Shown here in pieces: positions 32,706 through 37,744 of a stretch of 64,000 nt of DNA (the stretch's first letter is position 1; the number at the start of each line of letters is the position of its first letter). The notes beneath the pieces were generated by a model. That model ran no database searches and was not told where the DNA came from. It saw only the letters and a program-made list of their open reading frames with translations. This DNA is from Alphaproteobacteria bacterium (lineage in GTDB: Bacteria; Pseudomonadota; Alphaproteobacteria; SHVV01), in assembly GCA_965261735.1 (NCBI GenBank), contig OZ253470.1:1664001-1728000 (forward strand), given 5' to 3'. The position numbers and the translations under genes are program-made.

Positions 32706-34139
32706 GATCGTGTCCCGCGGAGTGGTGTAAGAGCGTTGCGCTCTACGCGGCTCCCGGCGGGTAGGGCCGGGACGTTCAGGCTGCCACGGTGGGCAGCGTG
32801 ATGGGGACACCATCGCTCAGCGGAGCGATGGATTCCAGCGTCATGTATCTCCTTGAGACGGCCCACTCGTCGTTCTGCTCGAGAAGGATGGCGCCGACGA
32901 GCCGTGTGATGGCGGCTTCGTTGGGAAAGATACCGACGACGTTGGTGCGACGCTTGACCTCGGCATGGAGCCGTTCGATCGGGTTTGTGGAGTGCAATTT
33001 CTGGCGGTGCTCCCTGGGGAAGCTCATGTAGGCGAGGACGTCGTGCTCGGCTTCGTCCATGAGAACTGCCAGCTTGGGCACCTTGGGCCTGAGCTGGTCG
33101 GCGACCTGGCGCCACTGGACCTTCGCGCTGTCGGCGTCCTCCTGGGCGAAGGCGGAGACGACGCGCCGGCCCTGGCGGCCGGCATGGGCCAGCAGGTTGC
33201 GGGCGAAGTGCACGCGGCAGCGCTGCCATGTGGCGCCGAGGATCCGGGTCGCGGCGGCCTTCAGGCCCTTGTGGTCGTCGGAGATCACCAGCTTCACGCC
33301 GCGCAGCCCGCGCCGGGCCAGCGAGCGCAGGAACTCGGTCCAGAAGGTCTCGGCCTCCGACGCGCCGATCGCCACGCCCAGGACCTCGCGGCGGCCTTGG
33401 TCGTTGACGGCCACAGCCACGGTCACCGCGACCGAGACGATGCGTCCGGTCTGGCGCACCTTCACGTAGGTGGCGTCGAGCCACAGATAGGGCCAGTCGC
33501 CCTCCAGCGGTCGATCGAGGAAGCCGGTGACCTTATCGTCGATCTCGCCGCACAGCCTGGAGACCTGGCTCTTGGAGGCGCCCGACATCCCCATCGCCTG
33601 AACCAGATCGTCGACCGAGCGGGTCGACACCCCCTGGATGTAGGCCTCCTGGATCACCGCAGCCAGCGCCTTCTCGGCCATCCGCCGCGGCTCCAGGAAG
33701 CCCGGGAAGTAGCTTCCCTTCCTCAGCTTCGGGATCTTCAGCTCGACCGTGCCGGCCCGCGTCTCCCAGGACCGGTCGCGGTAGCCGTTGCGATGGGTGA
33801 TACGATCCGCCGAGCGCTCGCCGTGCCCGGCGCCGGTCAGGCCCTCAACCTCCAGTGCCATCAGCCGCTCGGCCGTGAAGCCGATCATCTCGCAAAGCAG
33901 ATCGGCATCGGAGCTCTTCTCCAAAAGCGCGCGCAGGGTCATCATGTCCTGGGTCATCGTGGTTCTCCTTCGGGTCAGGTTGGTTTGCACTAGCCTAACC
34001 CTAAACCGGAACCGCGATGGCCTCCGCTGTGGATAGCCGGCTTGCCTACGCCAGACTCTCGGCGGTCGCTACGGCAAGCCGCCTACCCACAGCTAACAGA
34101 GGCTCCAACAACTCCTACACCACGTCCTGGGACACGACC
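32706..34139 (-). mobile_element. IS256-family element, copy 2
   Basis: TIRs plus 8-bp target duplication TCTCGTCG (32698-32705, 34140-34147). Confidence 0.95.
32776..33957 (-). CDS. IS256-family transposase
   Basis: Same translation as 7249-8430. Confidence 0.95.
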
Positions 34140-34370
34140 TCTCGTCGAGGCTTTCAAGCCCAAGCTCGGGCGCCCACCATACGGGGTAGGTCTCGCCGGC
34201 CCGCGCGCCGCCGGAGGCCGCGACGGCGGCGAGAACCAAGCCAAGGGCTAGCGCCCATTCGGCTGCGTTGCTCATCAGGCGTCTCCGATTGTTTGGAGCA
34301 GGACATCTCTACCATGACGCTCGATTGGGGCAAAAGGTGGGCTGGTTGACCTTTGCGGCAACAGTCTCGC

Positions 34371-35120
34371 CTAAGCCCGCCCGAGGCGCGCAACCGCCAA
34401 GTACGGGTGTGGCACGCCCTTCCGGTTGGCGATGATCACCGTCGGCAGAAACTTGCAGCCAGCAGCATCCACCAGCGGCGGAAGGTAGTCCAACACATTC
34501 TTCGTAAAGCCGAAGTCGCGCAGATAGCTCTTAGTGGCGGGGCGTGCCCGCTTCAGCGCTCGCAGGGCGTAGCAGTACGCCGCCTTTATTTGGGGCTTAC
34601 ATACTTAACTTGACAGGCGGCAATCCTGCGCTCGCGTCAGTCGGTACGAACGTAACACAACAGCCCAAGACCGGAAAAACCACTCTTCGGCGACCGCATT
34701 GCAGCTAAGACGGGGGCCACGGCAGCCGGCGAACCTGCCCGTCAAGCTAAGTATGTAAGCCCCCTTTATTTCATAGACCCAATAGGAATCTTCGTCGGTG
34801 TTTTCGAATTGGTACCCCTCGTCGGTCCATTTCAGGTAGGCGACGCAGTTGTCGATGGGCTGCGCATCGAGCGAGCCCCACTCGCCCAAATAGGCGGTCT
34901 CGCCTTCGCCGACCATGTGGCGGCCGAACTTGTGGAACACCGCGCGCTTGCCCTCGGGAAACCGGCGGGCGAGCGCCGCGTCAATCTCGTCGAGGTTTTC
35001 AAGCCCAAGCTCGGGCGCCCACCACACTGGGTAGGTTTCACCGCCGCTGGCGCCACCGAGCGCCGCCCCGCCGCCGAGAAACAAGCCTAGAGCCGCTGCC
35101 CATCCGGCTGCTTTGCTCAC
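34371..35120 (-). pseudogene. secreted protein paralog 2, interrupted by a MITE and internally deleted
   Basis: ...SYWVYEIK[MITE]AAYCYALRALKRARPATKSYLRDFGF...ANRKGVP, then HPYLAVARLGRA*. Confidence 0.86.
34592..34763. mobile_element. 172-bp MITE (probably IS1595-related, distinct from copies A-E)
   Basis: TIR GGGGCTTACATACTTA(A/G)CTTGAC(A/G)GGC; 8-bp duplication CTTTATTT (34584-34591, 34764-34771). Confidence 0.9.
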
Positions 35121-35337
35121 CAAGGTTCCCCGCCTGTTTGGACCAGGATATCTACCATGACGTGCGATTGGGGCGAAAGAAAGGCCTGCCGTGCAGCACC
35201 GGAAGGTGGCGGCGGCGGAATCGCATCGCACGCAGCCGAGCGAGGACCGTAACCGATGGGGTGGACGCCCCTCCCGACGGCATCGCGATGTGCCAGGTTG
35301 GCGGTGTTGTTAACGCCAAGCGAGGAAGGGGGCGTCC

Positions 35338-36360
35338 ATGGAACAGGTTCACATGATCGGGATCGATCTGGCGAAGAACAGCTTTCAGCTGCACGGTGCG
35401 CGGGCGGATGGGTTGGTTGCGTTCCGCAAGAAGCTGAGCCGGGCGAAGCTGTTGGACTTTGTGGCTGCGCAGCCACGCTGCACGGTGGCGATGGAGGCGT
35501 GCGGCGGCGCGCACCATTGGGGCCGGGAGATCGGCAGTCTCGGCCATGCGGTGCGACTGGTCCCACCGATCTACGTCAAAGCGTACGTCAAGCGGCAAAA
35601 GAACGACGCGTCGGATGCGGAGGCGATCTGCGAGGCGTCGTCGCGGCCGACCATGCGCTTTGTGGCTGTGAAGACGGAGGAACAGCAGGCTCGGGGCATG
35701 CTGTTCCGGACGCGCGATCTTCTGGTGCGCCAGCGCACCCAGACGATTAATGCGCTGCGCGGCCATCTGGCGGAGTTCGGTGTCATTGCCCCACAGGGGC
35801 CGGCTCATGTCGGCCGGCTGACCTCGGCGCTTGAGGGACCGGCTTCGAGGTTGCCGGAAGCGGTCCGCGAGCTGGCCGGCCTTCTGCTTGAGCAGATCGC
35901 CGGCCTCGATGCGAAGATTGCGGGCCTGGAGAGGGAGGTCCACGTGAGAGCACGGCAGGATGAGGAGGCGAGGCGCCTGATGAGCGTGCCGGGGATCGGG
36001 CCGATCAGCGCGATGGCAATCCAGGCCTTCGCACCGCCAATGGAGAGTTTCCGGCGCGGCCGCGACTTCTCCGCTTGGCTCGGCCTCGTGCCGCGCCAGC
36101 ACACGACCGGCGGCAAGCCGAAGCTGGGCAAGATATCGAAGATGGGCCAGCGCGATCTGAGACGGCTGCTGATCACAGGCGCGATGACTGTGGTCCGCTG
36201 GGCGGTTCGGCGCGGCGTGACGACGGACCCCTGGCTGGCCGGGATGCTGGCGCGCAAGCCGAGGATGCTCGTCGCGGTGGCGCTGGCCAACAGGATGGCG
36301 CGCATCGTCTGGGCGCTACTGACGAAGAAGGAGAGCTACCGGGCTCCCGCCACCGCCTGA
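35338..36360 (+). CDS. IS110-family recombinase/transposase
   Basis: IGIDLAK, MEACGG, KNDASDAEAI, VPGIGP, AWLGLVPRQHTTGGK. Confidence 0.96.
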   Translation: MEQVHMIGIDLAKNSFQLHGARADGLVAFRKKLSRAKLLDFVAAQPRCTVAMEACGGAHHWGREIGSLGHAVRLVPPIYVKAYVKRQKNDASDAEAICEASSRPTMRFVAVKTEEQQARGMLFRTRDLLVRQRTQTINALRGHLAEFGVIAPQGPAHVGRLTSALEGPASRLPEAVRELAGLLLEQIAGLDAKIAGLEREVHVRARQDEEARRLMSVPGIGPISAMAIQAFAPPMESFRRGRDFSAWLGLVPRQHTTGGKPKLGKISKMGQRDLRRLLITGAMTVVRWAVRRGVTTDPWLAGMLARKPRMLVAVALANRMARIVWALLTKKESYRAPATA

Positions 36361-36613
36361 GAGAACGGCGAAGTGCGGGAAGCCGTCGGGGATGTGGGCA
36401 GGACGGAGGACAGGTAAGGGCAAAGGTCAACGAGACCGGGTTGGGAAAACCAGCATCCGAACGGAGAGCTTTCAAGCTCGCGTAACCGATTTGGACCCAA
36501 TCCGCGTATCTCCATACGGGCCCGCGGCGTGTCATCTGCCGCATAGAGAGGCCGGACACACGACAGCACCTGACCGCATGCACCGAGCCGACCAAAAACT
36601 GCTTGCATCAACG
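36361..36613 (+). ncRNA. putative bridge/seek RNA of the IS1111 element (boundaries approximate)
   Basis: Non-coding stem-loops containing CGTAACCG (left target plus core) and ACACACG (right end plus core). Confidence 0.7.
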
Positions 36614-36728
36614 GGGGCGTCCACACACGGGCGGTGCGGGAGATGTTCGAGAAGGCGCTGAAGCAGGAGCCGTTCTTCGTCCACCCGACGTGCAAGAAGC
36701 CCTTGAAGACCCTGCACAGCCGCGGCCG

Positions 36729-37622
36729 TTAATAGTAGCTGAGAATCTCGGGGTTAAGGCACGACCTGCTGTTGTCCCCGCGATAGCCATGTGCGTCGAT
36801 CACCCGGAGCACGGCGCCCCGCCGGTCGAGCGTCAGAAAGAACAGAACCGTTGTCGGCAGGCCCCTGGGTTTGCCAAGAAAGAATCCGAGGAAATCCCGC
36901 CTTACCAGTAGATCGTCCAACCCATCCCCGTTGAAGTCGCCGCGGCCGATGATGGAAAAAGCATCCTCATCGTATTTTTCCGTCATCTCGGACGAGCTCC
37001 ACGCCTCGTAGACGAAATGCTCCGGGTCGCGAACGACCAGGTTGACAAAGTGCTTCGGCGGTCCGAAGGCGGGATGGACGAATTGGCTCCACGGCACGCC
37101 GTCCCGGTTAGCCAAGAGTTCGGCCCTCAGGAACTTGCAGCCGGCCGCATCTAGCAGCGCCGGGAGGTAATCCAATACGTCCTGCGTGAAACCGAAGTCG
37201 CGCAGATAGCTCGTCGCGGCCGGGCTTGCGGGCTTCATCGCACGTAGCGCCAAACAGTACGCGGCCTTCAATCGGTAGACCCAGTAGGAATCTTCGTCGC
37301 TGTTTTCGAAGCGGTACCCCTGATCGGTCCATTTCAGGTAGGCGAGGCAGTTGTCGATGGGCTGCGCATCGAGCGAGCCCCACTCGCCCAAATAGGCGGT
37401 CTCGCCTTCGCCGACCATGTGATGGCCGAACTTGTGGAACACCGCCCGTTTGCCCTCGGGGAAAGGCTCGGCGAGCTTGGCGTCGATCTCGTCGAGGCTT
37501 TCAAGCCCAAGCTCGGGCGCCCACCACGCGGGATAGGGGCCCTCGGCCTGCGCGGCGCCGGAGGCAGCCACGGGGGCGAGAACCATGCCAAGGGCTAGCG
37601 CCCATCCGGCCGCGTTGTTCAT
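36729..37622 (-). CDS. secreted protein of unknown function, paralog 1 (intact)
   Basis: Signal peptide ending AQA, 4 Cys, GRGDFNGDGLDDLL motif; two upstream-sharing paralogs in tandem. Confidence 0.85.
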   Translation of the reverse strand: MNNAAGWALALGMVLAPVAASGAAQAEGPYPAWWAPELGLESLDEIDAKLAEPFPEGKRAVFHKFGHHMVGEGETAYLGEWGSLDAQPIDNCLAYLKWTDQGYRFENSDEDSYWVYRLKAAYCLALRAMKPASPAATSYLRDFGFTQDVLDYLPALLDAAGCKFLRAELLANRDGVPWSQFVHPAFGPPKHFVNLVVRDPEHFVYEAWSSSEMTEKYDEDAFSIIGRGDFNGDGLDDLLVRRDFLGFFLGKPRGLPTTVLFFLTLDRRGAVLRVIDAHGYRGDNSRSCLNPEILSYY

Positions 37623-37744
37623 CAGACGTCTCCGATTGTTTGGAACATCTACCATGACGTGCAATTCAGCCGAAAGAAAGGCGCGGGTAATGGCGCGACT
37701 GGGGCAAAGGCGGCGCTACCTCCGCCCCGCGTTCTGCAGCGCCC

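Follow-up and report, generated by a model that had tools for sequence, protein, structure and literature searches.

In insertion sequences (IS) of the IS1111 family, seekRNAs derived from the non-coding region (NCR) of the element are required for circle formation and transposition and can be reprogrammed, and such RNAs have been shown experimentally in four IS1111 elements (PMC11187229). The same study gives a rule for the order of the guides in IS1111 elements, the match to the top strand lying 5' of the match to the bottom strand; it finds TG in place of SG to be normal for IS1111-type enzymes and shows a junction promoter for ISEc11 and ISEc21 (PMC11187229). A bridge RNA has been predicted in 93% of IS1111 elements, at the right end (PMC11208160). 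This class of mechanism has been known since 2024, and the element that we describe here is in itself an ordinary one. It lies at 35256-36629 on the forward strand of a window of 64,000 nucleotides from an alphaproteobacterial genome (contig OZ253470.1, positions 1,664,001 to 1,728,000; the window is this whole stretch, and positions are counted from its first letter). We are highly confident that it is an IS1111-group insertion sequence of the IS110 family with a bridge/seek RNA at its 3' end. Its anatomy, its copy number and insertion sites, the co-variation of its guides with flanks and ends, the conserved helices of its RNA and its simple insertion are all shown by the sequences, and we take them in turn below.

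The borders of the element follow from a comparison of copies within its own genome (5.03 Mb, a single contig). This genome holds the element 14 times at 99-100% identity, along with relatives at 80-82% (five copies) and several fragments; the window copy is sequence-identical to its 13 siblings. Identity among the 14 copies stops at 35256 on the left and at 36629 on the right, which gives an element of 1374 bp when one copy of the CG core is counted, and the flanks of the window copy are found contiguous at three other places in the genome. A preliminary description of this DNA, made from the letters alone, had placed an IS1111 element at 35248..36629; the identity and the right border stand, and the left border has to be moved, as 35248..35255 (+) is flanking target DNA. 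These eight bases outside the element consist of the left target flank (LT, CGTAAC) and the CG core, they agree with the 14-copy consensus and they are identical to the left target guide at 36481-36488 discussed below. In all 14 own-genome copies CG closes the left flank and CG also closes the element; with a single CG present at the uninterrupted paralogous sites, the CG core of the preliminary description holds as well.

The architecture within these borders is that of the IS1111 group. The left non-coding end measures 82 nt (35256..35337, +) and opens with ATGG (35256-35259), the right-donor (RD) sequence, and the right (3') non-coding end measures 269 nt, so that the longer non-coding region lies downstream of the recombinase gene. 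Where IS1111 elements have subterminal inverted repeats of 7-17 bp with short extensions, we find repeats of 11 bp: GTGGACGCCCC on the left (35261..35271, +) is the reverse complement of 36614-36624, with an inverted-repeat score of 11/12, and the same score places GGGGCGTCCAC on the right (36614..36624, +). Outside these repeats the element extends by 5 nt on each side, or by 7 and 3 nt if the core is counted on the left. The right end closes with the left donor (LD, ACACA) and the CG core (36623..36629, +), and the right target flank of this copy, GGCGG, follows immediately (36630..36634, +).

The sole long open reading frame of the region (35338..36360, +) encodes a recombinase of 340 aa, identified through Pfam, NCBIfam and alignment with PDB chains. 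Its N-terminal RuvC-like DEDD domain matches Pfam PF01548 (DEDD_Tnp_IS110) above the cut-off with an E-value of 5.9e-15, its C-terminal domain matches PF02371 (Transposase_20; E 4e-22), and residues 7-332 score 319 bits against a cut-off of 140 with NCBIfam NF033542, 'IS110 family RNA-guided transposase'. The nearest relatives of solved structure are the IS621 and ISCro4 transposases (PDB 8wt6, 9t56; E 7.7e-13 and 6.9e-10). Aligned with the GID / xE / TDxxDA blocks of IS621/ISCro4, the candidate DEDD residues D10, E53, D90 and D93 fall in GID / ME / NDxxDA blocks. The candidate nucleophile is T257 in GLVPRQHTTGG (residues 249-259), in which T257-G258 is aligned with S-G of IS621/ISCro4; the C-terminal G(L)-P----S/T-G nucleophile motif of the IS110 family is thus present. 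The preliminary description had spoken of an 'intact programmable recombinase'. Intact it is in its sequence features; its programmability we infer from the natural co-variation of guides and flanks together with published work on relatives.

Downstream of this gene, a consensus structure of 50 sequences predicts a bridge or long seek RNA of about 151 nt (36425..36575, +), which a possible helix P0 (GGTCA / TGACC) would close; the ends of this RNA are likewise predictions. Four guide strands can be read in it, all on the forward strand. In the target loop, the right target guide (RTG) CCGAACGG (36457..36464), complementary to the top strand CCG^TTCGG, is followed by a hairpin and then by the left target guide (LTG) CGTAACCG (36481..36488), which has the sense of the top strand and pairs with the bottom strand. 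In the donor loop, the right donor guide (RDG) CCATACGG (36512..36519), in which CCAU is complementary to the ATGG of the left end and an additional A precedes the bases that pair with the core, is followed by stems and then by the left donor guide (LDG) ACACACG (36556..36562), the same sequence as the final 7 nt of the element. The RTG precedes the LTG, so that the segment complementary to the top strand lies 5', as in the guide order of IS1111. Much of this had been read correctly from the letters: the preliminary description gave CGTAACCG at both 35248-35255 and 36481-36488, ACACACG at both 36556-36562 and 36623-36629, and CCAT at 36512 (36512-36515) opposite ATGG at 35256-35259, and all of these strings are where it put them. 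The string positions also bear out its remark that the two loops are built in parallel, and its IS1111-type reading agrees with the protein, the architecture and the guide logic alike.

How surprising are strings of this length? In the 64-kb window, counted on both strands, CGTAACCG occurs four times against 1.53 expected from shuffles, and ACACACG occurs twice, both times in the 3' end of the element, against 5.48 expected. Within a 269-nt stretch and on the right strand, simple arithmetic from these shuffle expectations gives chance counts of about 0.003 for CGTAACCG and about 0.011 for ACACACG. The identity of the LTG with the left flank in fact extends to 10 nt, CGTAACCGAT, because the LTG is followed in the RNA gene by AT, with which the element itself begins. 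Most family members likewise have AU, as at the start of the left end, directly after the LTG, and the RNA (window 36481-36490) matches the left junction as it stands after insertion over 10 nt. This match of LTG plus AU may reflect a handshake-like contact, one that covariation cannot address because the left end is invariant. A handshake-guide pairing of core-adjacent RTG or RDG bases with non-cognate DNA, as in IS621, showed no consistent pattern in two elements inspected by eye.

We now consider where the element inserts. The flanks of the 14 copies give a consensus target (C)G(T/C)AACCG^TTCGG: all 14 left flanks read (C)G(T/C)AACCG, in keeping with the CGTAAC-CG that the preliminary description expected of other copies, and the right flanks start with TTCG in six copies, GTT in three (GTTCG in two, GTTGA in L002) and AT in three, with two unlike any of these, the window copy among them. 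Reversed and complemented, CCGAACGG gives CCGTTCGG, the core followed by TTCGG, which matches six copies exactly as core plus TTCG(G) and three more with an extra G. The preliminary description saw that the right-target guide fits the window site poorly and left it at that. Since the reverse complement of CCGAACGG reads the core plus TTCGG seen in the right flanks of other copies, the RTG is real, and the window copy, with CGTAACCG^GGCGG, sits in a near-cognate site whose left half is perfect and whose right half agrees with the guide-expected TTCGG at three of five positions.

The window copy also shows how the element enters its site. Three paralogous places elsewhere in the genome have its two flanks joined directly (...gcgcaaccg^ggcggtg...) and carry one CG at the join; the insertion is therefore simple, with no duplication and no rearrangement. 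Insertion is thus specific for site and orientation, without target duplication and with a shared core dinucleotide, as in the IS110 family generally. These empty sites came from paralogous repeats in the genome itself; no empty site was found in the genomes of 20 relatives. Over the 13 distinct sites of the own genome, the longest exact match is at least 5 for the LTG in 11 and for the RTG in 7, where non-cognate comparisons give means of 3.3 and 3.5. A free perfect target GTAACCGTTCG occurs nowhere in the whole genome (1.9 expected from composition) and the relaxed form G[CT]AACCGTTCGG occurs once, at 4674079; all 14 copies are in near-cognate sites. These near-cognate sites suggest that the left half of the target, together with the core, dominates specificity.

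If the guides are functional, they should change when flanks and ends change, and a wider family allows us to see this. We use 78 fetched loci out of 553 relatives confirmed by tblastn, with recombinases 70-99% identical and from assembled genomes of several phyla, together with 19 elements of the own genome; fragments in that genome and distant matches (L020-L030) were not entered. Both ends could be placed in 86 of these 97 elements, and 11 without both recognisable ends were dropped (L031, L039-L042, L076, L081, L082, L093, L098 and L107). Right ends were placed by the inverted-repeat score and guide strings were taken from alignment columns, which yields 42 guide types; parsing of guides by regular expression and hairpin had handled only 46 of the 86 elements and was given up in favour of the alignment columns.

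This comparison is the decisive test of the target guides. For the 42 types, the summed longest exact match of the LTG with the consensus left flank is 278, against a permutation mean of 124 and maximum of 164, and that of the RTG with the right flank is 277 (permutation mean 141, maximum 173); none of 10,000 permutations reaches either value. The strands of the target loop are therefore complementary to, and co-vary with, both halves of the target, as expected of a bridge or seekRNA. On the donor side there are 29 combinations, with 12 distinct right-end 7-mers, and in 26 of them the LDG and the final 7 nt of the element are the same; the 81 of 84 identities between LDG and right end compare with a permutation mean of 60 (0 of 10,000 permutations reach the observed value). 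The dinucleotides of left flank and right end agree in 82 of the 86 elements (CG/CG in 68, TG/TG in 14; the remaining four are CG/CA), and the left end keeps ATGG in 84 of 86, with AGGG in L046 and L047.

The same point can be made within single genomes. A sister element with a TG core, at 80-82% DNA identity to the window element, is present in four copies of the own genome (L015-L018) at the target GCAAAAATG^TACCACG. The target-loop strands of its RNA gene are CGTGGTACA...GCAAAAATGA, and ACAGATG stands both in its donor loop and at its right end; the flank and the right end have thus changed together with LTG, RTG and LDG. A second TG-core sister, the single copy L019, is found at CAAAATTG^ACCC, again with guides changed to match. 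These five copies lie around 4347340, 4173238, 3421883, 439467 and 647577 of the contig (G000:C1), and those of L015-L018 lie inside a longer repeated sequence, with flanks alike over tens of bases. In another genome (OZ244799.1), copies of one element (L084, L085, L086 and L094) differ in their guide strands, and L084, L085 and L086 match their own flanks; ATGCGTGTCC stands with ^GACACGCA, for example, and ATATATGTCC with ^GACATATAT. The right flank of L094 mismatches its guide, and this flank is part of an element of L094's own type. Judged from these sequences, the guide variants in OZ244799.1 are an instance of natural retargeting on a very short time scale.

The strands that vary are held in a conserved structure. 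RNAalifold on 50 distinct sequences gives two modules; on inspection we added P0, a third pair in P2 and a further pair in P3. The target-binding module (36438..36503, +) is made up of P1 (36438-36445 / 36496-36503), P2 (36450-36452 / 36492-36494), the internal loop that holds the guides, and the hairpin P3 (36466-36469 / 36476-36479); the donor module has the stems P5 (GGCC / GGCC) and P6 (GCGGC / GCCGC) at 36519..36553 (+), which are 99.0% and 99.6% paired. P1 has eight pairs, 99.2% paired, four of them with compensatory changes; in P3, position 52/67 is altered on both sides in 23 of 50 sequences, and one pair of P6 is altered on both sides in four. Over the 30 pairs tested, pairing is seen in 95.2% of cells and falls to 22-47% once partners are slid, and eight pairs show changes on both sides, a number reached by 1 of 500 shuffles. 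Most compensatory changes are in P1 and P3; P0, P2 and P5 are nearly invariant and hence uninformative. A further pair proposed for P3, 50/69, is paired in only 4 of 50 sequences and was rejected. A secondary structure is thus conserved around the guide strands, and the fold with covariation across homologs that the preliminary description had put forward as a check comes out as two modules with eight compensatory pairs.

How the RNA would be supplied is suggested by the ends of the element. A predicted -35 box, TTGCAT (36603..36608, +), stands 17 nt before CACG at the right end, and only circularisation would complete the -10 box by adding AT from the left end; the TTGCAT (36603)-N17-CACGAT of the preliminary description is thus present in every part. 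Across the family, 53 of 63 distinct elements have TTG[CT] at exactly 17 nt from the hexamer that joins their last four bases to their first two, the commonest forms being TTGCAT and CACGAT; a further element has a TTG[CT] box at this distance and another besides. This conserved spacing fits a junction promoter of the type shown for ISEc11 and ISEc21. A scan of the linear element for sigma-70-like promoters gave 0 sites.

Assembled metatranscriptome contigs from four runs of two studies contain the element, including 36288-36575, without the flanks of the window copy. Where the loose ends of these contigs run into other insertion sites, they read (C)GTAACCG on the left and TTCGG on the right, an independent confirmation of the target. 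Two contigs from the study labelled P1 end at 36575, the 3' end of helix P0, which, coming from contigs of one study, may hint at an RNA end and no more. In X1 and X2 the contigs are deeper over the 3' end than across the gene, a difference not usable as an expression level. Runs bearing a habitat label had only small shares, and we draw nothing on habitat from them. No right-end/left-end (RE-LE) joint was seen in the RNA-library contigs, which drop rare forms and are uninformative on it either way.

From these pieces we propose the following mechanism. The target loop would read a chromosomal site of the CGTAAC-CG-TTCGG type through the LTG and RTG, and in the donor loop ACACACG (LDG) would read the right end plus core while CCAUACGG (RDG) would read the core plus ATGG with one bulged base. 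By analogy with ISEc11 and IS621, the DEDD/Thr recombinase would excise the element as a circle through recombination at the two CG cores, and the RE-LE junction so formed would create the promoter TTGCAT-N17-CACGAT, driving both the recombinase and the RNA. The RNA, of about 150 nt with two internal loops, would then hold the circle junction and the target together, with exchange at CG and no target duplication. That the RNA is made and bound, and that the circle, the promoter and the chemistry are as drawn here, we infer from the described relatives.

Several observations weigh against this picture. The weakest part of the guide model is the RDG: its reverse complement reads C-CG-T-ATGG where the junction reads CG-ATGG, a surplus of one base that demands a 1-nt bulge, and pairing of CCAUACGG with the circle junction requires one A to stay out of the duplex. 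The RDG base opposite the first core position varies without following the core (G, A or T in CG-core elements; A, G or C in TG-core elements), the L034-type RDG reads CCATGAGG and has no complement to the core, and covariation cannot address this limb because the left end ATGG is invariant. Specificity in the own genome is loose, with RTG matches of at most 4 in 6 of 13 sites and LTG matches of 3 in 2 of 13, and the right flank of the window copy itself falls short of what the RTG predicts. Folds of single sequences improve little on shuffles (z -2.4 for 269 nt, z -1.5 for 176 nt), and we set aside minimum-free-energy folds as proof of the two-loop shape, which they do not show alone. Rfam 15, searched at E<=1 over 34500-37500, matched no family. 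The RNA is seen only as assembled contigs, in which strand, ends and level cannot be read and which could derive from DNA, and because the linear element has no sigma-70-like promoter, the supply of RNA would depend on the predicted circle or on read-through.

Three other explanations have to be set against this evidence. The one that survives best accepts that the family is RNA-guided and holds that the window copy is stranded: its right flank GGCGG, mismatched to the RTG, would prevent efficient excision and leave the copy, at best, supplying recombinase and RNA in trans. The 'intact programmable recombinase' would then apply to the set of genes and not to the mobility of this copy. The 3/5 agreement of that flank speaks for it, as does the finding that ISEc11 with target bases replaced on either side of the donor gives no circle and no transposition (PMC11187229), and the RNA-library contigs do not reach the flanks of this copy. 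Against that, circles of ISEc21, of the IS110 group, still formed with three matching right bases (PMC11187229), and the RTG of IS621 pairs with only 4 nt (PMC11208158). The copy is moreover identical in sequence to 13 siblings, and it inserted here despite the mismatch, with excision using the same pairings. We regard stranding as possible and, on balance, doubtful.

A second explanation is that only the target loop guides, as a short seekRNA of about 80-95 nt, and that the protein recognises the ends through the subterminal inverted repeats and the flanking target, the donor-loop matches ACACACG and CCAT being scaffold features or by-products. It draws strength from ISEc11, where an 82-nt seekRNA with the target matches alone is sufficient and more efficient than the 154-nt form, from the RDG, which requires a bulge and does not covary with the core, and from the consensus fold, which gave no helix closing the donor loop except the invariant P0. 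Across 12 different 7-mers, however, the LDG follows the final 7 nt of the right end (26/29, 0/10,000), which is hard to explain without pairing, and the two loops are parallel in build. The donor loop of IS621 is seen structurally and its RDG also has flipped-out bases (PMC11208158), and Durrant et al. report complementarity to the donor in those IS1111 elements that they inspected (PMC11208160). The flipped-out bases in IS621 are a precedent for the bulge, not proof of it. We consider a purely target-side RNA quite improbable, and keep to a two-loop RNA that would read target and donor alike. Finally, that the matches are non-functional, whether by chance or as captured remnants of targets, with targeting by protein alone, has in its favour the shortness of the strings (7-8 nt) and the lack of an Rfam family, and it is made exceedingly improbable by the permutation tests over 42 guide types (0/10,000), by compensatory helix changes exactly around the variable strands, by within-genome guide variants that fit their own flanks (L084, L085, L086) and by experimental proof in relatives (PMC11187229).

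Some family members are found inside other mobile elements. Eight of the 42 guide types have a copy abutting another family member. Of these, five have guides that fit the sibling and are aimed at conserved parts of it, namely the 5' scaffold of its guide-RNA gene, its donor-loop strand and its right inverted repeat. L032 lies in the 5' scaffold of a sibling's guide-RNA gene, both its flanks being 100% contiguous in L060 at 1176|1177; L059 and L103 lie in the donor-loop strand of a sibling, at 1322|1323 of the L089 type, with L050 and L106 in similar positions; and L048 and L075 lie 10 nt from a sibling's right end. The window also carries an IS256/Mutator-type element (32776-33990, -) that encodes a 404-aa transposase (Pfam PF00872) and has about 60 copies in the genome. 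Elements of the window type have inserted three times (L005, L007, L014) at one and the same spot of this IS256-type sequence, CATGGAGCCG^TTCGATCGG, between the codons NPIE|RLH of the catalytic-glutamate motif of the IS256-type transposase. The corresponding window site is 32973|32974, and about 58 IS256-type copies, that of the window included, are uninterrupted there.

One of these three copies is unusual. L007 (G000:C1:3634573-3635949, -) has the left flank of the IS256 site, and its right flank starts 1043 bp further on, at ...CGCAACCGCG^ATGGCC, a sequence that imitates the element's own left junction (a pseudo-left-end) and is found again at window 34004-34022; the right flanks of L008 and L009 also begin with AT. 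RNA-guided adjacent deletion and recombination between two copies are both possibilities for L007, and in the former case it would be a natural example of bridge-RNA-mediated genome deletion. Only tentatively do we suggest that this IS1111-type clade, with recombinases 70-99% identical, one scaffold and at least 42 guide sets, uses its programmable RNA partly against other mobile DNA. Were this true, and selected rather than incidental, it would amount to RNA-guided competition, or to the choice of safe harbours, among insertion sequences; the insertions into siblings are in any case a lead on interactions between insertion sequences.

In the immediate neighbourhood, the element is flanked by tandem paralogous genes (window 34605-35231, 36729-37664 and 34093-34275, all on the minus strand) of a family with products of about 300 aa, a conserved N-terminal region (ETYPVWWAPELGLE...) and a weak, sub-threshold FG-GAP match; a second cluster of this family lies at G000:C1 around 777700-781400. 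The insertion of the window copy interrupts a 57-aa open reading frame that is intact in the paralogous spacer. Elsewhere in the genome, three remnants are truncated at the 5' side and retain the 3' non-coding region together with the right end: L020 (G000:C1:3363440-3364077), L022 (4279546-4279948) and L021 (239041-240055), the last derived from a 79% relative and with its donor loop partly deleted. These remnants could still provide guide RNA in trans.

The value of the system lies in its suitability for comparison. It offers a clean natural data set of 14 fresh copies in one closed genome, with identifiable empty sites and with sisters that have a different core, and, beyond this genome, a compact clade spread over several phyla in which one RNA scaffold goes with 42 guide pairs and 12 donor 7-mers. 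Such a natural reprogramming series helps to tell fixed from free scaffold positions in the IS1111-type bridge recombinases, which are less studied than IS621.

Among known systems, IS4321/IS5075 and the attC-targeting members of IS1111 target the terminal repeats of the Tn21 family or integron attC sites. They use one position and one orientation in the conserved sequence of another mobile element, as some siblings here do likewise; the consensus target of the window element, unlike the targets of IS4321/IS5075, is not part of a recognised repeat in its own genome. ISPpu9 of Pseudomonas putida, also of the IS110 family, is described as having a small-RNA gene downstream of its transposase, several copies per genome and circular intermediates, and differs in inserting into REP sequences (PMC12288879). 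With IS621 and ISCro4 (PMC11208160, PMC11208158), the window element shares a two-loop RNA, here predicted, in which LTG and RTG as well as LDG and RDG each include the core, a predicted DEDD + Ser/Thr composite active site and a putative discontinuous RDG with unpaired bases. Those elements carry the RNA in the left end, upstream of the gene, and have the order of guide strands reversed, their core is CT where ours is CG, and their subterminal repeats are only 2-3 bp; the similarity of their proteins to the window recombinase is mostly confined to the C-terminal domain.

Further close counterparts are ISEc11, ISPa11 and ISKpn4/ISPst6 (Siddiquee et al. 2024, PMC11187229). Like these, the window element has a recombinase of 330-350 aa with GL-P----S/T-G, subterminal inverted repeats, a long non-coding region downstream of tnp, no target duplication, a junction promoter (here predicted), and a top-strand match 5' of the bottom-strand match with a hairpin between them. 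Natural retargeting between close relatives, described for ISEc11 and ISXne4 (PMC11187229), is likewise found in the window family. The window element, known from sequence alone, differs from the ISEc11 group in its target (CGTAAC-CG-TTCGG) and its guides, and its family has a donor loop that can also be read and whose LDG covaries, a feature not stressed for the ISEc11 group in PMC11187229.

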